From NCBI GenBank assembly GCA_038046605.1, contig JBBSVW010000037.1, positions 1-18,389 of the forward strand: 18,389 nucleotides of DNA, given 5' to 3'. Shown piece by piece: positions 3,147-17,741 of this stretch. The notes beneath the pieces were generated by a model. The model did not search any database. It saw only the letters and a list, made by a program, of their open reading frames with translations, and was not told the DNA's origin. The DNA comes from Candidatus Micrarchaeota archaeon. Lineage in GTDB: Archaea > Micrarchaeota > Micrarchaeia > Norongarragalinales > SBBD01. The first letter of the stretch is position 1. The number at the start of each line of letters is the position of its first letter. Made by a program: the position numbers and the translations under genes.

Positions 3147-3178
3147 CGGCTTCCGTTTTATTTCCGCAAGCGGTTTTC

Positions 3179-4679: not shown

Positions 4680-5225
4680 ATGGGGATTTTTCAAGAAAAA
4701 TTAGCTGGAATAAAAAAGGAACTCCCTTTGTGGCGAAGCAAGCCCGCTTTGGACTTTCTTGCAGCAAGGGCGGCTCTTCCGCCGGAACGTAGAAATCATG
4801 AATACAGGCAATGGGCAATAGAAATGCTAAATGTCACTCCCGAAACCCGGGGCGCTATAACCGGAATCGCAAGTCGGATCCATGAATTTGAAAGATTATA
4901 TTCAGCAGCAGATAAGCGGCATCCAATCAGCGTAAAAGATATTGTCGAGGCATATGGCTTTGTGATTCAGTCGCTTAACAAGCACAGACACCTATCAACG
5001 AGCGATAATTTACGCGAAGAGCATGCAAAACTTTTTGCAGGAATAAGAAAAAATGCAGAACCTTATGCTCAAATTCTAATAAGGGATCCCAATGCCGTTG
5101 TCGCTTTAGGCAATCCGGAAGATTTGAAGCATTTCGTAAATATCGGGAACGAATCAATTATTCTAACCTTAGGCAAAAAAGGCAAAATATGGCGCCGTTT
5201 GATGGGGCATTTGCATTCCAAATAA
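4680..5225 (+). CDS. Hypothetical protein, candidate immunity protein
   Basis: 181-aa ORF directly downstream of and co-oriented with the Rhs toxin, with a G-rich RBS-like stretch. The immunity role is inferred from position only. Confidence 0.6.
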   Translation: MGIFQEKLAGIKKELPLWRSKPALDFLAARAALPPERRNHEYRQWAIEMLNVTPETRGAITGIASRIHEFERLYSAADKRHPISVKDIVEAYGFVIQSLNKHRHLSTSDNLREEHAKLFAGIRKNAEPYAQILIRDPNAVVALGNPEDLKHFVNIGNESIILTLGKKGKIWRRLMGHLHSK

Positions 5226-5241
5226 ACCGGCAATTCCGTTT

Positions 5242-5586
5242 CTATTCGCCTTTGTGCCTAACTGGCTTTCCCCTTGGGGGCGCAAAATCAGACCTTTGCA
5301 AATTCCGAACAAAAGCCTCCGCCCGAACAAGGCCCTTGCCCATTCCGCTTATCTCCGGATTTTTTATCCTATCGAAGCATCTATGTATTTCCCTTAAGGC
5401 ACTTTCCAGTTCCCCCCGGTTTTTGATGCCATGCATGCCCAGGGGCACGCGCTTCCTGGCTTCATCACTAACCCCCGGATGCGTATGGAGCATATCGATC
5501 ATGTTCTCTATTGCCATTTTATGGATTGCGGGCAAATGTGAATGCCAATTTGGCGGAAACGGCCTATCCCTTGGAACCATGTTCAT
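5242..5586 (-). CDS. Hypothetical protein
   Basis: 114-aa ORF with GGTGA just upstream; the true start may be the ATG at 5580. Confidence 0.6.
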   Translation of the reverse strand: MNMVPRDRPFPPNWHSHLPAIHKMAIENMIDMLHTHPGVSDEARKRVPLGMHGIKNRGELESALREIHRCFDRIKNPEISGMGKGLVRAEAFVRNLQRSDFAPPRGKPVRHKGE

Positions 5587-5616
5587 TTCACCATTTTATT
5601 GCAGTAATGCGATTTT

Positions 5617-6336
5617 TTAATCCCCTAATAATTTTTTCAAAAAAACCGCATCCATCTCGCATCTCCCAAATTCCTTTCCATTAAAAATATGCTTGTACGA
5701 ATCCAAAGTCAAGCTTAGCATTTCAAACCCCGCCTCCTTAAAACCCTTTTTCACCTCCTCTTCAGTAAAATAATGCACCCAGACATTCGTTCCCTTCCGG
5801 AAGGTGTTGCTTTCCACTTCAATTCCCTTCCCGAAACGATAATCTGTAATGTGGAACTCCCGGAAATAGCATTTCCCTCCCTTTTTGAGCACCCGGAATG
5901 CCTCCTTTATCGCCAATTCCCTCTCCTTTTCGCTCAAATGCCCCAGAATATGGAATAGGAAAACCACATCAAAGAAATTATCCTCAAAATGAAGCTGCGT
6001 AGCGTCACCAATAGTCAAGATCGCCCCCTCTCCACTTAATTCAGCCCTCTCCTTTGCTAATTTGATAGCACTTGGTGAAATATCAACTCCATACACATCA
6101 AAGCCCTTATCAAGCAGCGCACTTAAGTGCTTTCCATTCCCGCAACCAACTTCCAGCACTCTGCTGCCTTTTTTTGCCTCAAATTGGAAATTAGTTGTTC
6201 CCCTCCATCTCCCTCTCCCAGTCCGGTACTCCTTTTCCCAGGCGTAGAGATGCGGCTTTGCAAGTGCGGATCCTTCCAGCCCCGCTGCCTGCATTGATGC
6301 GCCCTGCGGCTTTCGTTTTGATCTCAAAAACACCAT
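5617..6336 (-). CDS. Class I SAM-dependent methyltransferase (Methyltransf_11/UbiE-like)
   Basis: Motifs VLEVGCGNG, GVDIS, GDATQLHFEDNFFDVV and AFRVLKKGG. Confidence 0.93.
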   Translation of the reverse strand: MVFLRSKRKPQGASMQAAGLEGSALAKPHLYAWEKEYRTGRGRWRGTTNFQFEAKKGSRVLEVGCGNGKHLSALLDKGFDVYGVDISPSAIKLAKERAELSGEGAILTIGDATQLHFEDNFFDVVFLFHILGHLSEKERELAIKEAFRVLKKGGKCYFREFHITDYRFGKGIEVESNTFRKGTNVWVHYFTEEEVKKGFKEAGFEMLSLTLDSYKHIFNGKEFGRCEMDAVFLKKLLGD

Positions 6337-6389
6337 GGGTTCACCGGCTTGGAATAGCTATAATCAACTTATTTTCTACTATTAATCAA

Positions 6390-6403
6390 CCGAAGTTATA
6401 TAT
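6390..6403 (+). promoter_or_regulatory. Putative BRE/TATA promoter for the 6427 operon
   Basis: CCGAAG-TTATATAT ends ~24 nt upstream of ATG 6427, consistent with a leaderless transcript. Confidence 0.6.
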
Positions 6404-6426
6404 CCGGGTTGCGCCAATAAGGCCGC

Positions 6427-6666
6427 ATGCAAATTCAATTTTCAAGGCACCTAATTCAGAAGTTGGAATTTTCCCGCAGGAATATTACCGGAAACATGGT
6501 TCTCGAAACAATTGAATATTATGATTTAATCAAGCCCGCCGGATCAGCTAACCGCTTGCTCTACCTTAAATACTATGAAAAATTAGATAAGTTTTTATTG
6601 GTCGTCGTTGAAAACAATATGTGCGCAATCACGGCTTATCTCATAAGCAAAGGTCGAGTATTATGA
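6427..6666 (+). CDS. DUF4258-like putative toxin (RelE/BrnT-like fold)
   Basis: I.FSRH...K...R.I at the N-terminus and LLVVVE....ITAY at the C-terminus; ATGA-coupled to a DUF2283 gene, a known pairing. Confidence 0.7.
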   Translation: MQIQFSRHLIQKLEFSRRNITGNMVLETIEYYDLIKPAGSANRLLYLKYYEKLDKFLLVVVENNMCAITAYLISKGRVL

Positions 6667-6923
6667 AAGGAATGCGGTATTTTCCAGGGGATGATGTGCT
6701 TTACATCAAGGTCAAAAACGGCAAATATAGCGAGAGCAACCCCATTTCTGAAAACCTCATTCTCGACATAGATAAGGATGGAAACACCCTAGGTATCGAA
6801 ATTCTCCATGCTTCAAAAGAACTAGCCAAAGCGAAGTTGCCAGTCAAAACAGCAGCCAAAAAGAAGGGGTTTGGAATGTTTCCAGATGTCCCTAAATTTA
6901 CTCATGATCCAGATATGTTTTGA
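6663..6923 (+). CDS. DUF2283 family protein (putative antitoxin)
   Basis: Y...DDVLYI...ES..ISENLILDIDKDG..LGIEIL signature; ATG 6663 overlaps the upstream TGA. Confidence 0.85.
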   Translation: MKGMRYFPGDDVLYIKVKNGKYSESNPISENLILDIDKDGNTLGIEILHASKELAKAKLPVKTAAKKKGFGMFPDVPKFTHDPDMF

Positions 6924-6945
6924 TTTTGCTACGGGATGATGATCT

Positions 6946-7116
6946 ATGGTCGGGCTGAAAAGAAAGAAAATATTATCTAAAAGACTAACTCCCGTTGAAC
7001 AAAAGCTGCTCGATAAATTTAGGAGAATTGCCGATGAAAAAGGAATTACAGATCAGAAATTAATCGAGATTTGCAGGGAAGTCGGAAGGCAAGTCTATCA
7101 GGAAGAATACGGATAA
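6946..7116 (+). CDS. 56-aa protein resembling a VapB-type antitoxin C-terminal region (not in ORF track)
   Basis: Manual translation MVGLKRKKILSKRLTPVEQKLLDKFRRIADEKGITDQKLIEICREVGRQVYQEEYG, with a GATGA RBS upstream. Confidence 0.6.
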   Translation: MVGLKRKKILSKRLTPVEQKLLDKFRRIADEKGITDQKLIEICREVGRQVYQEEYG

Positions 7117-7129
7117 GGCTGTGAAAATA

Positions 7130-7234
7130 ATGCAAACAAAGATTTCATCAGTTTTGGAAGAGATAGTTGGGATCCTGCCAAAGGGTGCGCCACTCTTTGT
7201 TCGGGATAAGCGCGATTTTGATAGAAATATTTAA
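7130..7234 (+). CDS. 34-aa micro-ORF, antitoxin-tail-like (not in ORF track)
   Basis: Manual translation MQTKISSVLEEIVGILPKGAPLFVRDKRDFDRNI, with GTGA upstream; co-oriented with the preceding operon. Confidence 0.4.
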   Translation: MQTKISSVLEEIVGILPKGAPLFVRDKRDFDRNI

Positions 7235-7296
7235 GGATAAATAATCTATTTTGATATAAAATAGCTAAATTTTTCTCCTTAGCCTCACGTCGTCCC

Positions 7297-7527
7297 CTAA
7301 AGTTTGCCAAAACAATTGTCGCATAAACCCGCATGCCAATCCTTGTTATGGGCAGATATAGTAGCGGCGCAATTTTTGCAGAAGTAATTCATATCCTCGT
7401 CATGCCCCTTATGGAAAGTCTTTAGCCTCAGTTTCAAGTCCTTGTCTCCCAGCGTTTCGGAAAAATCTTTTTCAGCCCATATGCTTTTTTCGCCGGTTTG
7501 TACTTTGGCCGATTTCCCCTTTTTCAT
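7297..7527 (-). CDS. Small putative zinc-binding protein
   Basis: CKNC...H...H..LCDNC motif; GGAGTGA RBS before ATG 7527. Confidence 0.7.
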   Translation of the reverse strand: MKKGKSAKVQTGEKSIWAEKDFSETLGDKDLKLRLKTFHKGHDEDMNYFCKNCAATISAHNKDWHAGLCDNCFGKL

Positions 7528-7679
7528 TAAAATCACTCCATTTCCTCAAGAACTTCATTTTTCCTTCTTTTTTCCGGTTTCCTTGGTGAGGATTGGAATG
7601 CTACCACATCCACCTTAATTCCATTAAGGAAACATTAATATTAAACAATATGGATAGGCTATATGCAAAAGGTTATCCC

Positions 7680-7889
7680 ATGACTAAAAAAGATGCTGAT
7701 TTTGAATTCTACCTGAAAACAGACCTCAGTAAATACGAAGGGCAATACGTCGCAATTGCAGGGGGTAGGGTAATTGCACATGGGGATAATGCATCGGAGG
7801 TAATGAATAGGGCCAGCCGGCTGCACCCCAACCTAATACCGACCCTTGCTAAACTCCCAAAGGATGAAATTTTCATCTATTTGAACTGA
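7680..7889 (+). CDS. DUF5678 family protein
   Basis: LSKYEGQYVAIAGGRVIAHG.NASEV...A...HP pattern; likely start is ATG 7680. Confidence 0.8.
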   Translation: MTKKDADFEFYLKTDLSKYEGQYVAIAGGRVIAHGDNASEVMNRASRLHPNLIPTLAKLPKDEIFIYLN

Positions 7890-7948
7890 AAAGCGTTAAA
7901 TGAAAGGTATAAAATCATCCCTTGCGGAATATGATGAATGGTGGTAAT

Positions 7949-8179
7949 ATGTCTCAAAAACTCTCGGCTATAATCACGAAGGGCGAAATCGCCTATGTTG
8001 CCCTATGCCCGGAATTAGACGTTGTCAGCCAGGGTAAAAACAGGGCCGATGCGCTTGCAAACTTAAAGGAAGCCGTCGAATTATACCTGGAAGATGAAGA
8101 TGTCCAAAAAATGCTTGCAAAAAATCCTATACGGAAGGCCGTGGTGGCAGAAATATCAGTTAAACGCAAGCTGAGTTGA
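7949..8179 (+). CDS. hicB: HicB-family antitoxin (short form)
   Basis: YVALCPELDVVSQGK...ALANLKEAVELYLE; GGTGG RBS before ATG 7949. Confidence 0.92.
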   Translation: MSQKLSAIITKGEIAYVALCPELDVVSQGKNRADALANLKEAVELYLEDEDVQKMLAKNPIRKAVVAEISVKRKLS

Positions 8180-8183
8180 TTTC

Positions 8184-8417
8184 GTGCCAAAATTGCCTAT
8201 AATTTCAGGCGTTGAACTGATTAAGGCTCTTTCAAAAATCGGTTTTGCGCAAGTCCGGCAAAAAGGGAGCCATGTGACTGTAAAGAAGCATGCTGAAGGT
8301 AAACTCCTTATTGCTACAATTCCATTGCATCCGGCCCTCGATACCGGCACCCTGCTCGGCATATTGCGCAAACTTCAAATATCAAGGGAAGATTTCCTGA
8401 AACTTTTGGCAAAATGA
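8184..8417 (+). CDS. hicA: HicA-family toxin
   Basis: MPKLP.ISG.ELIKAL.K.GF...RQKGSHV...IPLH..L..GTL..IL. Confidence 0.93.
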   Translation: MPKLPIISGVELIKALSKIGFAQVRQKGSHVTVKKHAEGKLLIATIPLHPALDTGTLLGILRKLQISREDFLKLLAK

Positions 8418-8468
8418 TGGGTTCATGCTCTCCCCTAAACTTCATTTTTTCCCTGCTTACCGAACAAT

Positions 8469-8738
8469 TCAAAGGAGCTTTTCTTGCAACGATTTTGCAT
8501 CCTTCAACTCAATCGCCAAGTGAGGACCAGCCAACCCCGAACCCACAAAAATATGAATACTGTGATTCCTGACCAGTTCAATTGCCGGAATGCCATTCTG
8601 CTGGGTGCGCTTTAACAGCCTTTGGCGGCCTTCAACCGATTTTGTATCTACCTCCTCGAAAATTATGGAGCGCATTTGAAGGTATTTCCTTACTTCAGTG
8701 CTTTTTGCAGAATTGTCGGAATACAGGACGACTTTCAT
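8469..8738 (-). CDS. Glutaredoxin/NrdH-like protein lacking cysteines
   Basis: KVVLYS...[SAKS]..VRKYL....I.FEEVD...TQQNGIPAI follows the Grx pattern, but CxxC is replaced by SxxS. Confidence 0.75.
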   Translation of the reverse strand: MKVVLYSDNSAKSTEVRKYLQMRSIIFEEVDTKSVEGRQRLLKRTQQNGIPAIELVRNHSIHIFVGSGLAGPHLAIELKDAKSLQEKLL

Positions 8739-8795
8739 CCATTCACCTTTTTGTGTTTTGAAGTTTTTTCCCCTTCCTTTTTTCCGGTGTCCTTG

Positions 8796-8813
8796 GTTCG
8801 GATGGGCATAATC
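8796..8813. repeat. Degenerate cassette-junction site
   Basis: gttcggatgggcataatc is 15/18 identical to the 9439 site and overlaps the stop of 8812..9372. Confidence 0.6.
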
Positions 8814-9372
8814 ATGGATTTTTTCTGAAATAAGTAAACTTAGGGTAAGTGGTTAATTTATTTATCAAGCCGGCGGCAGAAAGGGAATTCCGGAATTCAT
8901 ATGGATTGTGCAATCTCTGGGTAAATTCTCCATCTATTGTTTTTATTTTAATATAATATCTTTTTGTAATATCAAAAGTTATCTGGATTTCCAGAATTTC
9001 TTTTTTTTCGAATTCTTTTTGTTTGGCGCCCTCAAAAGCGAGGAAAATACAATAAACAAATGGGATCCAGTCAAAATACGGCAATTTATCGCTCAAATTT
9101 GAATTGCTCATCCTTATGGCGCCAGGTACAACCCTAACTGGCCTCCACATGAAAAGCTCTGCGATTATTGTCAATAGCGTTCCCAATCCAAACCAAACAA
9201 ATAGAAAATATGTGACATAAATTGGATAAGCTGCAAGAATAGCCATAAATACAAACCATAGGAGAAAAAGAATTCCAATCGAAATGAATCCGTTGATTAA
9301 TACATTAATCCGAGTATCTTTTGTTGATACGTATAATGGATGATCCTCCCAAATTAATTCACCTTTAACCAT
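8812..9372 (-). CDS. Hypothetical membrane protein (2 TM plus possible PH-like beta domain)
   Basis: Two hydrophobic helices followed by a beta-rich region; GGTGA RBS. Confidence 0.75.
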   Translation of the reverse strand: MVKGELIWEDHPLYVSTKDTRINVLINGFISIGILFLLWFVFMAILAAYPIYVTYFLFVWFGLGTLLTIIAELFMWRPVRVVPGAIRMSNSNLSDKLPYFDWIPFVYCIFLAFEGAKQKEFEKKEILEIQITFDITKRYYIKIKTIDGEFTQRLHNPYEFRNSLSAAGLINKLTTYPKFTYFRKNP

Positions 9373-9390
9373 TTTCTCACCATTTATTTA

Positions 9391-9408
9391 GTTCTTACTT
9401 GAATGAAC
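9391..9408. repeat. Cassette-junction palindrome
   Basis: gttcttacttgaatgaac. Confidence 0.9.
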
Positions 9409-9438
9409 TTCATTTTACTTTGTTTTTCAACTTTTTTG

Positions 9439-9456
9439 GTTCGGATGGGGATGAAC
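9439..9456. repeat. Cassette-junction palindrome (variant centre)
   Basis: gttcggatggggatgaac. Confidence 0.8.
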
Positions 9457-9497
9457 GACACCCCAAAGGGGAAACTACGTTTCCCCTACCACGTGTC
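9457..9497. other. Imperfect hairpin (REP-like or terminator-like)
   Basis: GACAC-N5-AGGGGAAAC-TAC-GTTTCCCCT-N5-GTGTC. Confidence 0.6.
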
Positions 9498-9513
9498 GCC
9501 GCCTACCCTTTCC

Positions 9514-9924
9514 TCATATTCTGAAAACGCCCATGTAATGAATCCAAACGTTTTGTTGACCACCACTCAAACTATATGGAAAAGTTGAGCCAACGCCAGG
9601 ATGATTTTGCCAAGATTCTAAATTTAGCGCTTGAATTTGACGAGAATTGGAATAAGGTTGAGTGATATTAGGAAGAATTTGATTTTGCTGATAATAAAAT
9701 ATGCTTCCTGCTTCAACTCTCAAATCTCTTCCTGAATGACTAATTATTTCGTCAAATTCACCTGTCTTTTTCATTTGCGAGAGTTTAGTCTCTAAATTAT
9801 AAAATGAATTGCAAGATAAACATTGAGACTCCGTGTTTGTTCCACCATTGCATAGGCTAACTCCCACATGACCAACAGTTATTGGTAAATTAGAGCCGCA
9901 TTCTGCGCATATTCCAATTGCCAT
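9514..9924 (-). CDS. Hypothetical protein with N-terminal zinc-ribbon-like motif
   Basis: CAEC...CLSC; GGTGA RBS before ATG 9924. Confidence 0.65.
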   Translation of the reverse strand: MAIGICAECGSNLPITVGHVGVSLCNGGTNTESQCLSCNSFYNLETKLSQMKKTGEFDEIISHSGRDLRVEAGSIFYYQQNQILPNITQPYSNSRQIQALNLESWQNHPGVGSTFPYSLSGGQQNVWIHYMGVFRI

Positions 9925-9960
9925 TTTTCTCACCAAACACTTTTTCCCAATAGCCGGATA

Positions 9961-10386
9961 TTAATCTTCCTTGGTTCTTACTTGGATGAACTTGTTTTTT
10001 GAAATGTACTCTTTGATCAAACCAATTCCCATCCCAAAATAAACATCGTTGGTCGCATTTGAAAAATTGCCGCTATCTTGAAAATAGCCGTATATTGCAA
10101 ATGCTAGAACCAAAAAGCCGGAAATTAGATAAATTTGATCCATTTCTTTCTCATTTGGACTGTACCTTTTTAGCCTAAAAGCCAAATAGAACTTAAAAAC
10201 AGAGATAGCTGGACCTACAATCAAAGTGGTCAATATGATACGCGCTAGGGTGCCAATTGGTCCAAGAAAGTACATTCCAACAGCAAAGAAAAGGGCTATC
10301 CCAAGAAGTATGAGTTTTGCAAGTTCATTTGCTTCATTATAATCCTTCATTTGTTTGAAATCAATTTTTTCTACCATAAACATCAT
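9961..10386 (-). CDS. Hypothetical multi-pass membrane protein
   Basis: Three to four hydrophobic segments; the C-terminal FIQVRT is encoded by the 9974 repeat. Confidence 0.75.
   Translation of the reverse strand: MMFMVEKIDFKQMKDYNEANELAKLILLGIALFFAVGMYFLGPIGTLARIILTTLIVGPAISVFKFYLAFRLKRYSPNEKEMDQIYLISGFLVLAFAIYGYFQDSGNFSNATNDVYFGMGIGLIKEYISKNKFIQVRTKED
9974..9991. repeat. Cassette-junction palindrome inside a gene 3' end
   Basis: gttcttacttggatgaac, 17/18 identical to the 9391 site. Confidence 0.85.
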
Positions 10387-10434
10387 ACTAATAGCGTAAA
10401 TATTAACTTTCCTCCGGATTCGCCATCATCCCCC

Positions 10435-10462
10435 TTTTTGTTCATCCAAATATGAACAAAAA
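10435..10462. repeat. Cassette-junction palindrome, perfect 11-6-11, opposite orientation
   Basis: TTTTTGTTCAT-CCAAAT-ATGAACAAAAA (core 10440-10457). Confidence 0.9.
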
Positions 10463-10549
10463 TGTGCAAATCTTTTTTCCAATTTTGCACCTTAAAGATA
10501 TCCTAAGTAAAGGTTAAAATACTCGGATTGAGAGAATAATTCGTTAACT

Positions 10550-11068
10550 ATGAAGAATATCTATTTTTTGCTTCTTTTATCAATTCTATTGTTTGGATGT
10601 GTTGTTAAAACAGCATCGGATAAAGGAGAAAGGCAGCTTCAGGATGAAAGTTATCAAGAATACAAAAAATGCAAGGAAGTTAATGGTGAAGCATCAAAAA
10701 GAGGGGTAGACCTGATCGAAATTCCGCAGTATTCCTATCACTATGATATATGTGATTTTGAAAGGTCTAAAGTCGTATGTGTTGGTCATGGAGGTGACGA
10801 AAATCATTGCTACTGGAACCAAGCTTTGATATATCAAATCCTCCGTGAGGATGCAGTCAATTTATGCGAAAAGGCAGGTGATTCAAAGTCACAATGCTTA
10901 ATCGATGTCGAAACATTACAGGATATGAAGGAAGAATGTCAAAAATTGTCATCAGAAGAGGCACTTAAATGCCTAAAACTTGGTGGAACTCTTCACAAAG
11001 AGCAAGCAAAACTAAGGGAAAATGTTTTTTCGGGAACCAATTTAACTGAGGTCTATATTGTTGGTTAA
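10550..11068 (+). CDS. Cys-rich putative lipoprotein
   Basis: MKNIYFLLLLSILLFGC lipobox-type signal and multiple spaced cysteines. Confidence 0.8.
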   Translation: MKNIYFLLLLSILLFGCVVKTASDKGERQLQDESYQEYKKCKEVNGEASKRGVDLIEIPQYSYHYDICDFERSKVVCVGHGGDENHCYWNQALIYQILREDAVNLCEKAGDSKSQCLIDVETLQDMKEECQKLSSEEALKCLKLGGTLHKEQAKLRENVFSGTNLTEVYIVG

Positions 11069-11306
11069 TTGTTCATTAATATTATTACAATATCATCTGA
11101 CTAAAATTAAGTAGGTAATTAACTCCATAACGCTATAATCACCGGTTCCTTTCCCCTATTTCTCATTCCTTTGGCCTAAAGTTCTGGCTTAGGCACACCC
11201 GAGCCACCCCAGATTCTCCCACCATACCGGAATGATAGAACCATGACCGGAAAATGGGTTTATGATGATTTTTTTGGTTATAGTATGTTGAAACGCCGGA
11301 ATGTGG

Positions 11307-11621
11307 TTATAGAGAGATGTTATTTTTTATGCAATAATCAATAACCGCAATAATCAATACCAAAATAAAAAAAACGATTCCTATGTAAAAAAATATCTTA
11401 GCAAATTTTACCGCTTCGTCCCCTTCCTTTAAACCAAAATTGTACCAACGAGTACCAAAGAATCGTTTTCTCTTGATGCCAATCAGTCCAAAAACAATGT
11501 ACCAACCCGTAAATAAGAATCCCCATAAGAACGGATCCATGAAACTATGGAGAAAGATGAGGATTAATTGAACTCCAAGGAATACTACTGCAAGAAATAT
11601 GTTTTCAATATTTTTTTCCAT
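11307..11621 (-). CDS. Small 3-TM membrane protein (paralog of 13185..13508)
   Basis: Hydrophobic helices and an EGDEA motif. The GTG called at 11630 lies inside the GGTGG RBS, so the likely start is ATG 11621. Confidence 0.75.
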   Translation of the reverse strand: MEKNIENIFLAVVFLGVQLILIFLHSFMDPFLWGFLFTGWYIVFGLIGIKRKRFFGTRWYNFGLKEGDEAVKFAKIFFYIGIVFFILVLIIAVIDYCIKNNISL

Positions 11622-11639
11622 TTCCCCCACCTTTTTTCA

Positions 11640-11657
11640 GTTCATACTTGTGTGAAC
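11640..11657. repeat. Cassette-junction palindrome
   Basis: gttcatacttgtgtgaac, preceded on + by ccaccttttttca. Confidence 0.95.
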
Positions 11658-11659
11658 AA

Positions 11660-11899
11660 TTATTTTCTTAACAATTTGATGAAATCATCCCGTTCAATTC
11701 CAGCCTGCTTTAAAATATCATGAAGAAGGCCGGGTTTCAGGTCTGCATTGCCATGAAGGGGAACCACTGTAACTAGAACCTCAATAACCGTTCTTTTCTT
11801 AAGCCGGACATGGCTGCCTTTCTGGGCGACAATTTCAAACCCTTGCTTCTGTAAGAACTTGACCATTTCCTTTCCGGAAATGACTGGCAGTTTAGGCAT
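11660..11899 (-). CDS. hicA: HicA-family toxin
   Basis: MPKLPVISGKEMVKFL.K.GF....QKGSHV...VPLH...LKPG.L..ILKQAG. Confidence 0.95.
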   Translation of the reverse strand: MPKLPVISGKEMVKFLQKQGFEIVAQKGSHVRLKKRTVIEVLVTVVPLHGNADLKPGLLHDILKQAGIERDDFIKLLRK

Positions 11900-11908
11900 T
11901 AGATCCCC

Positions 11909-12160
11909 TCAATTGCCGTTCTTTTTGATTTTGGAGGGAACAACAATAGTTGTGACAATTGGATGAGAAAATTTCCTTCCCTTGAGCATTTTTTGCACAT
12001 CTTCATCTTCCAAATAAAGTTCTACGGCCTCCTTAAGATTAGTGAGAGCAGATTCGACGCTTTTACCCTGGCTTGCAACTCCTAACTCGGGGCAATGGGC
12101 AACATACCAATCATCTTCCTTTTCCAGAACCGCGGAAAATTCTTCCATTAATTTTACCAT
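11909..12160 (-). CDS. hicB: HicB-family antitoxin (short form)
   Basis: WYVAHCPELGVASQGKSVESALTNLKEAVELYLE. Confidence 0.93.
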   Translation of the reverse strand: MVKLMEEFSAVLEKEDDWYVAHCPELGVASQGKSVESALTNLKEAVELYLEDEDVQKMLKGRKFSHPIVTTIVVPSKIKKNGN

Positions 12161-12237
12161 AAAACCACCGTTTTAGCTATATTCATTTTAGAGAATAATA
12201 AACTATCTTTTTCCTAGATTTTCCCCACCTTTTTTTA

Positions 12238-12255
12238 GTTCATATGAGTGTGAAC
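12238..12255. repeat. Cassette-junction palindrome
   Basis: gttcatatgagtgtgaac; arms extend to TTTAGTTCA/TGAACTAAA and overlap the TAG stop by 1 nt. Confidence 0.95.
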
Positions 12256-12632
12256 TAAACTGCACCACTTTCTCGAAGGCTTTCAAGATGCGCTTTTGTT
12301 GCTTGAAGCGGTTTCACCCAAATTTCCCGGAATTGATCTTCCGGCATGCCCCTCAAGGTTGCAAATATAGCAACTGGTACATAGCTTCGTCTTTCACCTC
12401 CATTCAGAGCGCGATGGGCGGCTTTCATTAATCTGGATGTAAATCGGACAGAGGCGATTAAATCCTCAACAGATGAAGCCGATCGGAGGGTATGTAGTTC
12501 AGGTTGCCCCCTAAATCTTCTTGTGTTGGAAGCCCAAATGCTATAGGTCAAATGCAATCTTCTCTCGTGTTCCTCGCCAAGATGCGATTTTATTTTCTGA
12601 AAAAAATCACTTTCGGGCAAATCATCTGTCAT
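12255..12632 (-). CDS. Hypothetical helical protein (paralog of 14617..14973)
   Basis: Fills the space between two sites exactly; SV.DLI...M...HR..N motif. Confidence 0.75.
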   Translation of the reverse strand: MTDDLPESDFFQKIKSHLGEEHERRLHLTYSIWASNTRRFRGQPELHTLRSASSVEDLIASVRFTSRLMKAAHRALNGGERRSYVPVAIFATLRGMPEDQFREIWVKPLQATKAHLESLRESGAV

Positions 12633-12650
12633 TTTCTCATCTTTATTTTA

Positions 12651-12668
12651 GTTCATACAAGCCTGAAC
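12651..12668. repeat. Cassette-junction palindrome
   Basis: gttcatacaagcctgaac. Confidence 0.92.
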
Positions 12669-12670
12669 CA

Positions 12671-13144
12671 TTACGCAACCATCCGCATCTCAAAATGATG
12701 CTCCCTAAACCCAAATTTGCAGTAAAGGGCGAAAGCTTTCCTATTCTTGGTATGGATCGTGATGCTTAAGAAATGAAGTTTCCGGCTTTTTGCCCACTCT
12801 CGGGCTTTCTTAAGCAATTTGGTGCCGATCCCCATGTTTCTGTAGCCTTCCGCAACAAACATCTCATATACGCAGGCATCCCGATCGTAAAAATATATCG
12901 GGAAATGGGATTCCTCCCTAACTATAATGTGGCCAATAACCTTTCCTCCATCTTCAGCGATAAATACGGCACTTTTTGGGCCTTTAATCATTTTCCGGAT
13001 GGTATTCCGATAAATTTCAACATAATTTGATTTGAAGCGGTAAATCTGGGGGTCGTAGAGCTTGAGAAATTTGGTTAGGGATAGCCCTTCAGCAAGAATT
13101 GCGGAAATATCTTTATGGAAGGCTTTCCGGATTGCTATTTTCGT
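12671..13144 (-). CDS. GNAT-family N-acetyltransferase (apparent ACG start)
   Basis: FIAEDGGKVIG, MFVAEGYRNMGIGTKLL and N..A..LY.KFGF motifs. The frame stays open 51 codons upstream of ATG 12991, to ACG-AAA-ATA-GCA-ATC-CGG-AAA-GCC (KIAIRKA). Confidence 0.88.
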   Translation of the reverse strand, partial: TKIAIRKAFHKDISAILAEGLSLTKFLKLYDPQIYRFKSNYVEIYRNTIRKMIKGPKSAVFIAEDGGKVIGHIIVREESHFPIYFYDRDACVYEMFVAEGYRNMGIGTKLLKKAREWAKSRKLHFLSITIHTKNRKAFALYCKFGFREHHFEMRMVA

Positions 13145-13164
13145 ACTTTAGACACCTTTTTTCA

Positions 13165-13182
13165 GTTCATACTCGTGTGAAC
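13165..13182. repeat. Cassette-junction palindrome
   Basis: gttcatactcgtgtgaac. Confidence 0.95.
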
Positions 13183-13184
13183 CA

Positions 13185-13508
13185 TTAATTCTTCCCATCA
13201 ATTCCTAGAAAGAAAAATACCAAGCTAATAACCAAAAATAAAGCGGAAACCTTTGCAAACGTTATAGCTAGTCTTTGTGCCTCCTCCCCCTCAAATAGTT
13301 TGAATGCACCGATTCTAATCCAACCTGCAAATTCAATCATCTTTCGAGTGTGATAACAAATAATTGCGAATATCAACCACCAGACCATTGTTGCTGAAAA
13401 ATAAGCGGAATTCCGCATGTGGAGGACACCTCCCCCATAAATTATGATTGCAAATGAGATGCCGAAGAATAAAACATAGTATATTATCATTTCCGTAATT
13501 TTATTCAT
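13185..13508 (-). CDS. Small 3-TM membrane protein (paralog of 11307..11621)
   Basis: Hydrophobic helices and an EGEEA motif; ATG 13508 follows a GGTGG RBS. Confidence 0.75.
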   Translation of the reverse strand: MNKITEMIIYYVLFFGISFAIIIYGGGVLHMRNSAYFSATMVWWLIFAIICYHTRKMIEFAGWIRIGAFKLFEGEEAQRLAITFAKVSALFLVISLVFFFLGIDGKN

Positions 13509-13526
13509 TTCCTCCACCTTTTTTCA

Positions 13527-13544
13527 GTTCATACTCTACTGAAC
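13527..13544. repeat. Cassette-junction palindrome
   Basis: gttcatactctactgaac. Confidence 0.93.
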
Positions 13545-13549
13545 CACAA

Positions 13550-14020
13550 TCAATGATGGTGGTGCCCATGCCCATCCTCCAGCTTCCTAGAGGTCCATCT
13601 GGCTATCCAGCCTTGGAAACCGGCATTTTCGATGACTTTGTATTTGAGAGCTCCTTTTTCCTCATCTGTGCCAATTGCAATGATGTTCCCGTGCCTTATC
13701 TGCATCCCTTGGGTGTTTGTGATCAAGGGCCAGGCAAAACTGCCATCATCCAGATGAACCCTCAAATCGCTGGCTTTTTTATCGTGGGTTATAATACGAT
13801 ATTCGCCTTTTTCACCTTTCACTATAGACAAATGGATGGGCAAAAACGTGCTCTTGGGGGTGCCAGCAGGCATATGCTGGTTCACTTCCAATGGGTCCAG
13901 CCGTATTGAAGCAGATTTATCATGCCCAATGGTGATCGGCAGCCCATCGAGGGAATACAGTGTTCCCCTATCGGGGTCCTTGAGGCTTTTTAGGAGGAAT
14001 TTTGGTTTTTCTTCTGGCAT
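13550..14020 (-). CDS. Degenerate FHA-like domain protein with His-rich tail
   Basis: G..Y.L...PITIGH....SIRL, H..I......Y.I and I.HGNII.IG match the FHA strand pattern; ends GHGHHHH. Confidence 0.65.
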   Translation of the reverse strand: MPEEKPKFLLKSLKDPDRGTLYSLDGLPITIGHDKSASIRLDPLEVNQHMPAGTPKSTFLPIHLSIVKGEKGEYRIITHDKKASDLRVHLDDGSFAWPLITNTQGMQIRHGNIIAIGTDEEKGALKYKVIENAGFQGWIARWTSRKLEDGHGHHHH

Positions 14021-14038
14021 TTTATCCACCTTTTTTTA

Positions 14039-14056
14039 GTTCATACGAGTGTGAAC
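14039..14056. repeat. Cassette-junction palindrome
   Basis: gttcatacgagtgtgaac. Confidence 0.95.
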
Positions 14057-14059
14057 CAA

Positions 14060-14302
14060 TTAATCGTAAATGCTTTGCCGTGGCCCAACCTTATGGCAAA
14101 CAATATCGTTTCCGATGATTTGATAAATAACGCGATAATTCCCAATCCGTAAGCTCCGGTACTCCTTCAGGCTGCCTTTGAGTGGTTTTCCAGTTAGTGG
14201 TTCATTTTGTAATATTGGCAATTCTTTAACAATCCGGCCAATATCCTTGGGATGGATATTTTTAAGAGTGGACTTGAATTTATTCGTTAGAACTAGTTGC
14301 AT
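14060..14302 (-). CDS. relE: RelE/ParE-family toxin
   Basis: P..GKPLKGSLKEYRSLRIGNYRVIY...VGPRQSIY. Confidence 0.93.
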   Translation of the reverse strand: MQLVLTNKFKSTLKNIHPKDIGRIVKELPILQNEPLTGKPLKGSLKEYRSLRIGNYRVIYQIIGNDIVCHKVGPRQSIYD

Positions 14303-14311
14303 GAAGAAGAC

Positions 14312-14542
14312 CTATTTGGCTTTCTTTTTTCTCGAGTTTTTAAGCTCTTTTTCAACTTCAGCCAAGGTATAAGTGCGTCCTGCATGGTAATCCGCTTTGC
14401 TTTCAGCCAAATCCTTCAGAATGTGGGGATCCGAGGTAAGAATATCGATTGTTTCTGTGAAGGATTCGAATTTGCTCTTCAATTCTGCGAGTTCTTTCCT
14501 TGTTTTATCCAATTCAAATAAAATGTGTTTGTTTTCGTACAT
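14312..14542 (-). CDS. Antitoxin of the RelE module (RelB/Phd-like C-terminus)
   Basis: ETIDIL.SDP.ILKDL.ESKAD..AGRTYTL.EV, located upstream of relE. Confidence 0.82.
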   Translation of the reverse strand: MYENKHILFELDKTRKELAELKSKFESFTETIDILTSDPHILKDLAESKADYHAGRTYTLAEVEKELKNSRKKKAK

Positions 14543-14573
14543 TTATTTCGCCTCTGTTTGTATTGTTTCCTAT

Positions 14574-14590
14574 GAATAATAGCTTTTCGC
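14574..14590 (-). promoter_or_regulatory. Putative BRE/TATA promoter of the RelBE unit
   Basis: Minus strand GCGAAAAGC-TATTATTC, ~30 nt upstream of ATG 14542. Confidence 0.5.
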
Positions 14591-14593
14591 ATT

Positions 14594-14611
14594 GTTCATA
14601 TTTACCTGAAC
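14594..14611. repeat. Cassette-junction palindrome
   Basis: gttcatatttacctgaac. Confidence 0.9.
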
Positions 14612-14616
14612 TAAAA

Positions 14617-14973
14617 TTAATCTAACACTCCCCTGGCTTTCAACCGTTTCAGGAGCTTTTTAGTTGAAAGGAGGCTAGTAATTAATTCCGCCGATTTTAT
14701 TGGTTTGCCTTTCTTTGGTCCCTTACCTTGGCCTCTTGCAATCGCGTTCATAACCCTATGGAATCCAATCATTGAACTTGTATCATGATTAAACGCTTCA
14801 ATCAGGTCATCAACGCTTTTTACACCGGTTTCAAGTTTTTTATCGACTTCGGGAGCTTGAGGGTTTTCTCTAAGGACATGATAAAGCCAAGCTCCACGTA
14901 TATTTGCTAAATGGATTTCATGATTGCCGGCTTTTTTTAGCTCTTCGACCAATCTTTCGTGTGAATAAGCCAA
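14617..14973 (-). CDS. Hypothetical helical protein (paralog of 12255..12632)
   Basis: Likely TTG start at 14973 after a GATGA RBS; SVDDLI...M...HR.MN motif. Confidence 0.7.
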   Translation of the reverse strand: MAYSHERLVEELKKAGNHEIHLANIRGAWLYHVLRENPQAPEVDKKLETGVKSVDDLIEAFNHDTSSMIGFHRVMNAIARGQGKGPKKGKPIKSAELITSLLSTKKLLKRLKARGVLD

Positions 14974-14990
14974 TTTATCATCTTTTTTCA

Positions 14991-15008
14991 GTTCATATAA
15001 ACATGAAC
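14991..15008. repeat. Cassette-junction palindrome
   Basis: gttcatataaacatgaac. Confidence 0.93.
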
Positions 15009-15010
15009 CA

Positions 15011-15382
15011 TTATTTCTCCTTAACAAAATGCACATTTGGCTTTCCCCTGAAATGCTCATCGCCCGTTAAAAAAGGCGCCTCGCTGGAGGCATATCGGTA
15101 AAGAATGGAATCCATCAGGGGCAATTTATCAGAATCGGAGAGCTTGCCAGCCATGATGCCCAATTTCAGGTCAAAATCAAGAATTAGGCTGTGCTTTTCC
15201 ATGAATTCGAAGAGCTTATCAATTTCGTAGTCCTCTAAACCGCGTCTCTTCAAGGTTCGGGAAAGTTCGGAAAAAACCAATGCAGGCGTTTTTATGATAT
15301 TTTTTTCAATCAGGTCGCGATATGCCTCGGATTTGTCAAAGTAGGCCATCCAGGCATAGGTGTCTGCAACGTAAATAGCCAT
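15011..15382 (-). CDS. vapC: PIN-domain VapC toxin
   Basis: YVADTYAW, E, L..MDSI and LTGDEHF catalytic pattern; likely start is ATG 15382. Confidence 0.92.
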   Translation of the reverse strand: MAIYVADTYAWMAYFDKSEAYRDLIEKNIIKTPALVFSELSRTLKRRGLEDYEIDKLFEFMEKHSLILDFDLKLGIMAGKLSDSDKLPLMDSILYRYASSEAPFLTGDEHFRGKPNVHFVKEK

Positions 15383-15387
15383 TTTGC

Positions 15388-15627
15388 TCACTTCTTGAAA
15401 TGTTTCCAATGCTCATTGAGTGCCAACTCATCCCCTTTGCGGTCCTCCAGCAGATCCTTTACGCTTGCCCTGCCTTTAAGTGCGCCCCACATACTCTCCT
15501 TCTTCTCCTCAAATAAATGCTTGTGGAGAAGAACATTTACTCCTCTCGATAGGTTGCCATCAAAAAGTTGCCTAACCTTATCTGCTATCATGTCGTCCAG
15601 CATCAATGTGGTTTTTATGGCTGCCAT
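15388..15627 (-). CDS. vapB: VapB-type antitoxin (ribbon-helix-helix-like)
   Basis: KTTLMLDD....K......GNLSR.VN.LL...L and SMWGALK, upstream of vapC. Confidence 0.82.
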   Translation of the reverse strand: MAAIKTTLMLDDMIADKVRQLFDGNLSRGVNVLLHKHLFEEKKESMWGALKGRASVKDLLEDRKGDELALNEHWKHFKK

Positions 15628-15660
15628 ATAGAATACACCATATAGAGTATGCCATAATCG

Positions 15661-15676
15661 TTATATAAAGCTTTTC
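15661..15676 (-). promoter_or_regulatory. BRE/TATA promoter of the VapBC unit
   Basis: Minus strand GAAAAGC-TTTATATAA, 33 nt upstream of ATG 15627. Confidence 0.75.
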
Positions 15677-15695
15677 TTTCCCCCACCTTTTTTCA

Positions 15696-15713
15696 GTTCA
15701 TACTTGTACGAAC
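15696..15713. repeat. Cassette-junction palindrome
   Basis: gttcatacttgtacgaac. Confidence 0.93.
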
Positions 15714-15719
15714 AAATAA

Positions 15720-15938
15720 TTATACTTCAATATGTGTAAATAATGCAGCCGATAACTTCCTTTCATCGACTTCTTTCCTTGCCTCCTTCTCCTCAAGATA
15801 TAATTCCACTGCCTCTTTGATGTTTGATAAGGCTTTTTCAACAGTTTTGCCCTGGGTAGTTACTCCTACTGACGGGCAATAAGCAACATATTCGTTTTGT
15901 TCCTTCTGGATAATAACTGGAAAAGTGTGTTTCTTCAT
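15720..15938 (-). CDS. hicB: Orphan HicB-family antitoxin
   Basis: FPVIIQKE..EYVAYCP.VGVTTQGKTVEKALSNIKEAVELYLE; no adjacent hicA. Confidence 0.9.
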   Translation of the reverse strand: MKKHTFPVIIQKEQNEYVAYCPSVGVTTQGKTVEKALSNIKEAVELYLEEKEARKEVDERKLSAALFTHIEV

Positions 15939-15948
15939 AAAATCACTG

Positions 15949-15966
15949 GTTCATATCGATCAGAAC
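15949..15966. repeat. Cassette-junction palindrome
   Basis: gttcatatcgatcagaac. Confidence 0.85.
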
Positions 15967-15969
15967 CAC

Positions 15970-16158
15970 TTAAATCGCCTCCGCCATATGGTGCTTCTCA
16001 ATTCTGTCTACTTGTTGGGAGGTGAAGATGAATTCATTGCATATAGGGCATTCATATGCTTTCACATTGTGCAAAGGAACGCCAGGCATGTACTCGTAAG
16101 TAGGAAAGACGATTTTCCTCGCTTCAACCTTATCCTTTTTGCAGATTATTTTACTCAT
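15970..16158 (-). CDS. YgiT/MqsA-type zinc-finger-like protein
   Basis: NVKAYECPICNEFIFT..Q..RIE; the first knuckle is CKKD; ATG 16158 overlaps the upstream TGA. Confidence 0.75.
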   Translation of the reverse strand: MSKIICKKDKVEARKIVFPTYEYMPGVPLHNVKAYECPICNEFIFTSQQVDRIEKHHMAEAI

Positions 16159-16331
16159 CGAATCTTCCGCCTCTTCCATATTTCATCATACATTTTATCA
16201 TGCTCTATTTCTGCTTTTCTATCCTCCTCCCTCATTTTTATTATGTCCTCCCCAGAAACTAGCCCTTTCAAGGAGCCAAAACCTGCATTTGAGATAATTT
16301 TTCCGCCCTTATTCTTGTTTTTGCTTTTCAT
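16155..16331 (-). CDS. Small protein resembling a stand-alone VapB C-terminal (toxin-binding) region
   Basis: GSLKGLVSGEDIIKMREEDRKAEIEH aligns without gaps to GALKGRASVKDLLEDRKGDELALNEH of 15388..15627. Confidence 0.6.
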   Translation of the reverse strand: MKSKNKNKGGKIISNAGFGSLKGLVSGEDIIKMREEDRKAEIEHDKMYDEIWKRRKIR

Positions 16332-16344
16332 ACCAATCAAAAGC

Positions 16345-16725
16345 TCATTTTACAAATTTGACATTCTTTAATCCCCTAAAGGCATCATCGCCCGTAAGGA
16401 ATTTGAGGCCCATGGATTTGGCCAAATGGTAGCCTAGAGCGTCGACGAATGATACATCTTTTTTTGTCAGTTTCCTGAGGGAAAATTTTTGCCTGCACGC
16501 TTCGATGAGTGCAGTTTTTGATGGGATAAGCGCATCTTCCATCATCATATCCTGCAATTTTTCAGCTATATCGATATTGCCATTCCTTAGTAGGACGAAA
16601 TAGGCTTCCGCAACATTCAGGTCGCATGTCACAACCTCAAATTCCTTGCCATAATATGGCATATAGCTACTGCTCCCGAAAACAAGCTCCAAGAGTGCGT
16701 ATGTGTCAAAATAATATTTCACCAA
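16345..16725 (-). CDS. vapC: PIN-domain VapC toxin
   Basis: YYFDTYAL, E, SFVDALGY and FLTGDDAF. Confidence 0.93.
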   Translation of the reverse strand: MVKYYFDTYALLELVFGSSSYMPYYGKEFEVVTCDLNVAEAYFVLLRNGNIDIAEKLQDMMMEDALIPSKTALIEACRQKFSLRKLTKKDVSFVDALGYHLAKSMGLKFLTGDDAFRGLKNVKFVK

Positions 16726-16937
16726 AAATCATCCTCCCCTCTTAGTTCATCTTTTATTTTTTGGGCGTTAAGGTCCAGATGTTTGCCGATTCCAAATAAT
16801 GACATATAGTCCTTCTTTGGCACCACCCGAAGTTTTAGCTCTTGGTTCTCCTTCAAATTAAGCTCCTTTGCTTCAGATGCAGGAAACCTGCCAAAAAATG
16901 AGCCGCCGATGCGCTTGATCTTTATGTTCACATACAT
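16719..16937 (-). CDS. vapB: AbrB/MazE-type VapB antitoxin
   Basis: KIKRIGGS....FP...AKELNLKENQEL and SLFG; overlaps the vapC start. Confidence 0.9.
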   Translation of the reverse strand: MYVNIKIKRIGGSFFGRFPASEAKELNLKENQELKLRVVPKKDYMSLFGIGKHLDLNAQKIKDELRGEDDFW

Positions 16938-16982
16938 AGGGGTACCTTGTTTAATTTATTGTTATATTTATTATACTGAATG

Positions 16983-17000
16983 TTATATATAAAGCTTTCG
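16983..17000 (-). promoter_or_regulatory. BRE/TATA promoter at the head of the minus-strand array
   Basis: Minus strand CGAAAGC-TTTATATATAA. Confidence 0.75.
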
Positions 17001-17041
17001 AGAATACGGTGTTTTATGCAAAGTTTGCAATCATGTAAATG

Positions 17042-17254
17042 CTAAATCCTATGCGAAATCATGGAAATGCCGATGAACACGAGGATGAGGGGCCAGAACG
17101 GGAAATTGCCGAACTTGATTATGCCAAACTCTCGCCCGATCTCAAAAAGCCCCCAGATCAGGATGAAGATGCCAAGCCAAAAGCCAAACCCAAAGCGCCT
17201 GCACCTTCCCCACCAGCCGTATTCGACATCCATATCATGGTCCTTATCCTTCAT
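17042..17254 (-). CDS. Small 2-TM membrane protein (LiaF/DUF5668-like)
   Basis: FWLGIFILIWGL...G....FWPLILVFIGI; GGTGG RBS before ATG 17254. Confidence 0.75.
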   Translation of the reverse strand: MKDKDHDMDVEYGWWGRCRRFGFGFWLGIFILIWGLFEIGREFGIIKFGNFPFWPLILVFIGISMISHRI

Positions 17255-17369
17255 TTGCCACCACCTATTTTTGATGAAAAGGAGGGCTATGGATGCAGGT
17301 TGCAACATTGCCCAAACCTTGCTTAAACATTGGCCAATAATCGATAGTGATGATTGCCAATAATTCATT

Positions 17370-17741
17370 TCACTTATTCCTTTTTGACATTTTATCCATG
17401 TAATCGAGCACTCTTTTCCTTTGTGCATTGGGCAGGCCATTTAGGACGGTATGGAAATCCGAGGTCAGGCTTACAATGAAAGCATGCAGGGGGGCATTGT
17501 ATGTGGCTAGGCGCCTCATTTCCCATGTGGCTTTTCTTGCCTGTGGCTCAAGAGCGGTCGCCCTCCGGATCAATTCGGGGGTTGGATTTGGAATATCATT
17601 CATTTCCGAATGGATATCCCCAAGCAACCTGAAACCGTGCTTTAATCTTTCGACATGATCGTAGGGGTGGATCGTTTCGAGCGCCGATCTAAGTTTTGAG
17701 AGGTCGGTTTCTTGCTTGTGCAAAACTATGGGGTTTCTCAT
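17370..17741 (-). CDS. Hypothetical protein
   Basis: 123-aa helical-looking ORF with no recognised motif. Confidence 0.6.
   Translation of the reverse strand: MRNPIVLHKQETDLSKLRSALETIHPYDHVERLKHGFRLLGDIHSEMNDIPNPTPELIRRATALEPQARKATWEMRRLATYNAPLHAFIVSLTSDFHTVLNGLPNAQRKRVLDYMDKMSKRNK

Follow-up and report, generated by a model that had tools for sequence, protein, structure and literature searches.

How a row of small, unrelated genes came to be separated, one from the next, by the same short palindrome is the question raised by a locus in Candidatus Micrarchaeota archaeon (assembly GCA_038046605.1, contig JBBSVW010000037.1). The whole stretch of DNA that was analysed, 18,389 nt long and here called the window, belongs to an assembly (the own genome, G000) of 1.64 Mb in 106 contigs that is 90.7% complete. 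The original prediction, made from the letters of the window, suggested that its 14 copies of GTTC-N10-GAAC may belong to an undescribed archaeal system of cassette capture with a recombinase acting in trans. Confinement to one locus, variable content and breakpoints at the sites all agree with cassette capture; the recombinase has not been found, and its action in trans is a possibility. The locus is a real chromosome landmark, order-wide and apparently undescribed hitherto, with palindromes that delimit exchangeable gene modules. Beyond what had been predicted, the array in the window is an expanded form of this order-wide, single-locus landmark.

The palindromic sites and their gene junctions

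All 14 intact copies were found where they had been placed, at 9391-9408 (site 1, 25.2 bits by the weight matrix described below), 9439-9456 (site 2, 15.4 bits), 9974-9991 (site 3), 10440-10457 (site 4), 11640-11657 (site 5), 12238-12255 (site 6), 12651-12668 (site 7), 13165-13182 (site 8), 13527-13544 (site 9), 14039-14056 (site 10), 14594-14611 (site 11), 14991-15008 (site 12), 15696-15713 (site 13) and 15949-15966 (site 14). As palindromes they are given without strand; besides the pattern, the matrix was used to recognise sites 1 to 4 and the anatomy of the gene junction to recognise sites 5 to 14. Site 2 has its better arm on the opposite strand and lies 48 bp from site 1, across a gene-free gap. 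That fewer than one copy would occur by chance is borne out by 200 shuffles, with a mean of 0.14 and a maximum of 2. Genome-wide, the loose pattern has 21 copies, 14 of them in a 6.6-kb tract of the window and 7 as scattered singles. Alternative spacer lengths of 0 to 30 in the own genome give 3-21 copies each, so the copy number of the loose pattern is unremarkable and the signal lies in the clustering. A weight matrix was trained on 62 sites from relatives only, four first-pass sites within genes having been set aside as matches deemed due to chance. It gives the 14 window sites 15.4-29.2 bits and the next-best site in the own genome 12.1 bits; strong sites are confined to one locus and not scattered through the genome. 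The array tract has 39% GC, as against 47% for the genome. At 8796-8813, where the array had been said to begin, there is only a degenerate half site (no strand, 2.8 bits).

Read along the coding (minus) strand, the order within the repeated unit is stop codon, variable arm, 6-bp spacer, invariant arm TATGAAC, A-run, GGTG motif and start codon. The 18-bp pattern originally described is therefore sound as a pattern, though the unit that is repeated is longer, taking in the A-run and the GGTG ribosome-binding motif. The extended palindrome has the consensus GTTCATA-N4-TATGAAC in the order as a whole. Among the ten co-oriented window sites, the arm on the ribosome-binding side has 0 mismatches in 70 positions and the gene-end arm has 14 in 70. 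For each of these sites, from 11640 to 15949, the distance to the stop codon upstream is between -1 and 6 nt, in agreement with the ten copies predicted to lie within 6 nt of it. Site 5 is 2 nt past the HicA stop and is followed by a ribosome-binding motif; site 6 overlaps a stop codon and is followed by a ribosome-binding motif without a start codon and then by the 5' non-coding region of hicBA; the last codons of the gene at 9961-10386 are overlapped by site 3. The ribosome-binding motif is still attached at site 13 (15696) as it is at site 6 (12238), despite no start codon following. Each interval had been expected to hold one gene or one toxin-antitoxin (TA) operon, and 11 of the 13 do; the interval 9391-9439 is empty, and that from 10440 to 11640 contains two opposed genes and a conserved non-coding element.

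A stop codon abuts the site in 38 of 57 cases in the window's family, in 53 of 124 in other families and at about 10% of random positions, and stop codon, ribosome-binding motif and start codon are found together on one strand in 17 of 57, 10 of 124 and at most 1%, respectively; these junction statistics are partly non-independent, since the consensus includes a TAG/TAA triplet and gene ends are natural breaks in homology. Of 139 pairs of neighbouring sites, 11 agree in all 6 bp of the spacer (vs 1.0% of 16,399 between-genome pairs), and in G008 three identical sites surround small genes. Scans for sigma-70 promoters and terminators gave matches at chance level, archaeal promoters being outside the scope of the scan.

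Exchange of modules at the sites

Arrays within the genus contain differing genes in differing order, so that neither gene content nor gene order is invariant across relatives. A HicBA block common to the window and G003 ends 12 and 2 nt from the site centres, with different neighbours on both sides, and a LiaF-like gene forms a site-bounded block in L019 and in L166/L168, again with differing neighbours. In another family, represented by G022, G038 and G026, the flanks and both sites are kept and the intervening DNA is different; the homology blocks there end no more than about 25 nt from the site centres at 5 of the 6 inner ends. When all pairs tested are taken together, 22 of 70 ends of homology blocks inside clusters are at most 25 nt from a site in each of the two genomes compared, as against about 8 expected. 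Breakpoints thus do fall at sites. Contigs of four sequencing runs contain no site-to-site excision joint, though assembled contigs drop rare variants.

Distribution of the palindrome

The extended palindrome was found in 10 of 49 genomes of one Micrarchaeota order and in 1 of 352 from other orders, and a stricter pattern has clustered matches in 18 of 61 genomes of that order, with one control match. Of 46 loci chosen by a site or by the ribbon-helix-helix gene discussed below, 45 hold 1-14 sites of at least 13 bits; no matrix match of at least 13 bits occurs in 58 control windows from relatives (1,046,038 bp). Among the matches listed, there is one cluster per genome in G003, G005 and G006; G007 has a second, smaller site cluster. 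Homologues of a protein from the relatives' loci come from sources that name Candidatus Micrarchaeota. Viral contigs scanned with two patterns gave 0 and 1 matches, and no description of this element was found in the titles and opening parts of abstracts of the open-access literature searched.

A GTDB-wide scan with a near-consensus palindrome gave 45 matches, 23 of them in Bdellovibrionales, where the palindrome occurs once per locus and overlaps divergent promoters beside a winged-helix regulator gene. These loci (L235-L278), with an operator-like palindrome, the regulator, and OsmC/Ohr-like, TIGR03643 and photolyase-related genes, probably constitute a light or oxidative-stress regulon. The palindrome thus makes a workable operator, which supports its binding by a protein and also keeps a regulatory explanation alive. 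The Bdellovibrionales regulator was rejected as a counterpart here, having no homologue in the own genome and no alignment to the archaeal winged-helix family.

Element E, oriented motifs and DNA-binding protein genes

The non-coding element mentioned above, element E (11136-11326, minus strand), has an order-wide core of about 95 bp at 11158-11250 with one TAGGCA motif inside. It is single-copy in the own genome, aligns almost without gaps, and is present in 7 of 7 same-genus loci compared. At an expectation value below 0.05, which is optimistic because the model was trained iteratively on those loci, 39 of the 53 loci with a cluster or a winged-helix gene gave a match to the core, whereas the 58 control windows gave none; the f7 loci were without a match. 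Where element and site co-occur, the nearest site is no more than about 1.2 kb away. There is no match to Rfam up to an expectation value of 5, and covariation of the predicted pairing amounts to 3 of 33 pairs with a double change in 7 sequences and 2 weak column pairs in 35 sequences. Being gap-free and without clear covariation or Rfam match, the element looks like a spaced DNA element; a structured non-coding RNA, with no clear compensatory pairing to show for it, was rejected. In the 2.5-kb flanks, 64 copies of TAGGCA[GC] are directed at the cluster and 7 face away from it, mostly in other families. G007 has a second copy of element E (L280, 8938-10153), which lies in a restriction/defence island together with a winged-helix gene of family B and three sites, one of them full and two degenerate; it may be a landmark captured from another lineage.

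Two kinds of gene for DNA-binding proteins are linked to the clusters. A single-copy ribbon-helix-helix-like gene, with weak VapB/RHH matches, is present in 33 of 60 relatives and often ends at a site; of 12 such loci not first found through the site, 9 have a site of at least 13 bits within 1.5 kb. The match to its profile in the own genome was rejected as a family member, being an ordinary antitoxin upstream of a PIN gene. Winged-helix family A is found in 40 of 61 genomes, and 7 of 30 of its loci have a site no further than about 1.5 kb away; its gene in the own genome is on another contig, without sites. The family A model, with a predicted local distance difference test (pLDDT) score of 82, gave generic winged helices only in fold searches, and aligns to the Fur DNA-binding domain with Z 9.7 and a root-mean-square deviation of 2.1 over 76 residues; AspA and RTP are among the weak fold matches of the candidate, at non-significant expectation values of 0.033 and 0.055. 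Family B occurs in 11 genomes that have no family A, its gene often standing next to the cluster, and its model (pLDDT 57) has its helices and strands in the same order as A. No solved structure is related by sequence to the winged-helix or ribbon-helix-helix candidate, and no ParA-type partner was seen among the conserved neighbours. An Lhr-type helicase gene and a ubiquitin-type-like operon adjoin the cluster in several families (L025, L026, L027, L097-L108); in the own genome they are on other contigs, and they have been treated as synteny rather than as functional partners.

Position on the chromosome

In G016 (21 windows of a 1.30-Mb contig), the keto skew measured at fourfold sites changes sign at the cluster, going from plus to minus, and changes back near both cdc6 genes; a cruder, earlier skew analysis was unclear. 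The pattern in this genome (L115-L134, L096) suggests two cdc6-linked origins. G026 and G007 likewise have a plus-to-minus turn of the skew at the cluster. Where cluster and cdc6 share a contig, the nearest cdc6 is about 27-320 kb away; a cdc6-linked replication origin was rejected, the repeats not being adjacent to orc1/cdc6. Judged from base composition along the sequence, a replication terminus would be a likelier position for the cluster than an origin.

Interpretation

The reading preferred here, with a probability of roughly one half, combines a landmark with modules. The palindromes would be binding sites of a dimeric DNA-binding protein at a fixed, single-copy landmark, most likely in the replication-terminus region, made up of element E, one to several palindromes, often inward TAGGCAG motifs, and nearby ribbon-helix-helix and winged-helix genes; to go by genomic linkage and fold, the winged-helix protein would be the best candidate binder. 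A module would extend from the conserved arm and ribosome-binding motif through the gene to its stop codon, and would be inserted or swapped at a site. The site would be duplicated upon insertion, with later drift of the spacer hindering loss between neighbours. In the window's genus, this process may have given rise to arrays of 4-14 sites, which TA modules would stabilise.

A number of observations weigh against this combined reading. As to the modules, other genomes have the same GNAT, LiaF-like and RelBE genes close to the locus with no sites, and the island of variable DNA runs past the array on both sides, again without sites (window 4680-8738 and 15970-17741). Sites are also found inside genes and in gene-free runs, and the dependence of the junction statistics on consensus and gene ends counts on the same side. 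Neighbouring window sites match at just 2-5 of the 6 spacer bases, so one would not expect neighbours to exchange by the ordinary, homology-dependent route. PF00589, PF00239, PF07508, PF01867, PF02371 and PF00078 all lack matches in the own 90.7%-complete assembly, though its unassembled remainder could hold a tyrosine recombinase, and 10 of the 18 pattern-positive genomes have no PF00589. As to the landmark, the GC skew of G003, from the window's genus, switches the opposite way about 30 kb from the array (its TA skew turns plus to minus); the skew of G040 (three windows) turns from minus to plus, and G036 and G032 show no skew switch. The motif TAGGCAGG is absent from the flanks of the window's own array, and no chromosome-wide polarity of TAGGCAGG, of the kind known for FtsK-orienting polar sequences (KOPS), was seen in the 5 genomes tested. 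In the window's family, 10 of 10 relatives lack the ribbon-helix-helix gene; the alignment between winged-helix families A and B is weak (P 0.003, probability 9.6%); and G016 has sites yet neither winged-helix family, being one of 10 genomes out of 61 in which neither is seen.

A gene-cassette system with neither integron integrase nor Xer can be put forward tentatively. The terminus landmark, with its element E, oriented octamers and palindromes to which a winged-helix protein would bind, would serve it as a platform, and an unrecognised host enzyme, by whatever chemistry of strand exchange it might employ, would insert genes and duplicate the 18-24-bp site with its own ribosome-binding motif.

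It is rather doubtful that the array is a cassette system of the dif type, with 11-6-11 sites at the terminus and a tyrosine recombinase that is too divergent for profiles or is transiently supplied by mobile elements. The pairing of one conserved with one variable arm, the variable 6-bp spacer, the empty modules and the TA cargo are as in pdif modules (PMC13141974, in the part available); terminus-type skew is seen in three genomes, and a tyrosine integrase of some kind is present in 32 of 60 relatives. However, none of 30 integrase loci has a site within about 1.5 kb, and neither PF00589 nor XerA (NF040815) has a match in G016, G036 or G020. The invariant bases come to 4-7 bp per arm, with outer arm bases pairing in under half of 76 sites, and direct rather than alternating orientation prevails among the window sites. 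No tyrosine recombinase was found in the near-complete relative G016, a single contig of 1.30 Mb, and a profile of the relatives' integrases has no match in the own genome; matches to NF040815, two in G003 and one in G006, are below the cut-off and on contigs without the array. The search for other enzymes gave no PF07508 or PF00078 in 5 of 5 genomes, and serine recombinase, Cas1/casposon, IS110 and retroelement systems were rejected, as the respective enzymes have no match in the own assembly. The sole mobile-element enzyme found there is encoded by a GC-rich Y1 transposase gene of IS200/IS605 type (L063, 1500-1900, contig C9), on a separate contig from the array and with no strong site close by.

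Also unlikely is a binding array and nothing more -- a centromere, origin or terminus -- which genes enter by ordinary homologous or microhomology recombination in the 30-bp repeats of site and ribosome-binding motif and by tandem duplication, with streamlining of the genome then paring away DNA until sites and stop codons meet. Such an array would suit the gene-free runs of sites at 38-56 bp spacing in G015, G030 and G022, the gap-free element E, the oriented motifs, the winged-helix and ribbon-helix-helix neighbours, the plain DNA-binding fold of the winged-helix model, and the lack of any recombinase found. It does not suit the climb of site number with gene number, from 1 to 14 sites per locus, the unrelated genes that each finish flush with a site, the ribosome-binding motif kept on sites with no start codon, or the distance of the sites from cdc6. 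The run in G015 (L193, 942-1447) has eight sites, mostly 38-56 bp apart, in a 600-bp gene-free tract, and is iteron- or centromere-like in appearance. Even if the sites do no more than bind protein, these archaea with small genomes, in many of which no XerA is seen, gain in the locus a first candidate for a landmark of terminus or centromere. How they finish and segregate their chromosomes then becomes testable, with three small proteins as candidates and with defined targets in the DNA.

It is improbable that the sites are operators for a regulator of transcription, or signals in RNA at which a long transcript is processed or terminated to give units of one gene each. Sites directly upstream of ribosome-binding motifs and the divergent promoters of Bdellovibrionales (23 of the 45 GTDB matches) would fit, but the sites abut stops more often than starts, are limited to one locus with unrelated, lineage-specific cargo, and form weak hairpins (-0.5 to -4.5 kcal/mol for the 18-mers), and the own genome has no homologue of the Bdellovibrionales regulator.

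Genes of the array and of the surrounding island

The array genes were identified as open reading frames (ORFs) and compared with Pfam; they are on the minus strand unless stated. The predicted HicBA, RelBE, VapBC and GNAT cargo was recovered as HicA, HicB-like, ParE/RelE, PIN and GNAT matches, and the remaining genes are mostly without any Pfam family. An FHA-like gene had been read at 13550-14029; the 159-aa protein encoded there is an orphan, with no Pfam match and no homologue but itself. From the left edge, the array has a 186-aa hydrophobic protein with no Pfam family (8812-9372), a 140-aa protein with Cys pairs and a weak zinc-ribbon match (9514-9936), a 141-aa hydrophobic protein with a weak MASE6 match (9961-10386), a 172-aa Cys-rich protein with no Pfam family in the opposite orientation (10550-11068, plus strand), and a 107-aa hydrophobic protein (11307-11630) whose 3' end enters element E. 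These are followed by a HicB-like antitoxin and HicA toxin (11660-12160), which have other neighbours in G003 and G006, a 125-aa protein with no Pfam family (12255-12632), and a GNAT acetyltransferase frame (12671-13153), which has no in-frame start codon past the site and ribosome-binding motif and is likely 5'-damaged. Beyond it are a 110-aa hydrophobic protein (13185-13517), the orphan, an antitoxin with a ParE/RelE-family toxin (14060-14542), a protein of about 119 aa with no Pfam family (14617-14976), a putative antitoxin with a PIN (VapC) toxin (15011-15627), and a solo HicB-like protein (15720-15938). A small gene and PIN toxin (16345-16937) head the array here and in G002, G003 and G006; a site follows them in those three genomes and none does in the window.

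A short, GC-rich, non-coding hairpin repeat (9457-9508, plus strand) comes after a site both here and in G003, and its 3' part is scattered in the genome with about ten recurrences. A T-rich CCGG repeat stands before genes at 7550-7599 and 8760-8809, and is frequent in the G003 and G004 arrays too. The site-free parts of the island encode a methyltransferase, a DUF4258-like pair, a second HicBA, glutaredoxin-like and LiaF-like proteins and orphans. Positions 3-4624 of the window hold a 1047-aa RHS/YD-repeat-like protein (by inspection), then an RHS-core-like protein with a weak C-terminal kinase match, possibly a polymorphic toxin locus in a small-genome archaeon.

Comparison with known systems

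Clustered palindromes in one chromosome region, bound by small winged-helix or ribbon-helix-helix proteins, are a feature of AspA, RTP/Ter, SegB and MatP/matS; sites of these types are not known to mark off exchangeable genes. Archaeal Xer/dif systems comprise 11-6-11 sites, XerA and a terminus position, and their polarised words have been termed archaeal short polarised sequences, or ASPS (PMC2958812, PMC5357621, in the parts available); the present sites resemble them in that three genomes have a terminus-type skew switch where the cluster stands. In G016, words that contain GTTG point toward the cluster, as ASPS do, and local oriented G-rich octamers recall KOPS. Unlike XerA/dif, the array has several sites, no XerA, and octamer polarity that is only local.

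With chromosomal integrons and clusters of attC sites lacking integron integrases (CALINs), archaeal ones included, the array shares tandem, mostly co-oriented short genes, sites adjoining stop codons, TA modules that keep a 5' region of their own and order-level conservation of the site, as far as the available part of that account goes (10.1101/2022.02.06.479319); its main text does not mention the Micrarchaeota. Tandem co-oriented short ORFs split by a site, an integron trait, make up 11 of the 13 intervals. The array differs from integrons in having no attC R-box pair, no long bottom-strand hairpin and no intI, and its 18-24-bp site differs from attC in having GTT and AAC in the reverse arrangement. 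No R-box pairs occur within 150 nt of any of the 14 sites, and with the weakness of the hairpins this upholds the original observation that the R''/L''/L'/R' layout of attC is lacking.

In pdif modules, short two-armed sites bound small modules that include TA pairs and empty modules, and those of Acinetobacter plasmids, recombined by XerCD, are like the array in having a more conserved arm, a variable 6-bp spacer, modules of 1-2 genes and shuffled content (PMC13141974, again in the part available). The array differs in being chromosomal and archaeal, with a site sequence unrelated to theirs, arms conserved over a shorter length, direct orientation for the most part, an attached ribosome-binding motif and a central element E, and in that no Xer was found. 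By analogy, the pdif modules offer the closest working model, and the array would not be a member of that family.

Two systems that collect genes at short sites are known, integrons and dif modules, and both need tyrosine recombinases. If the order-wide array does work without a tyrosine recombinase, it would represent a third route for collecting genes beside those two, possibly with a new site-specific enzyme of very short target.

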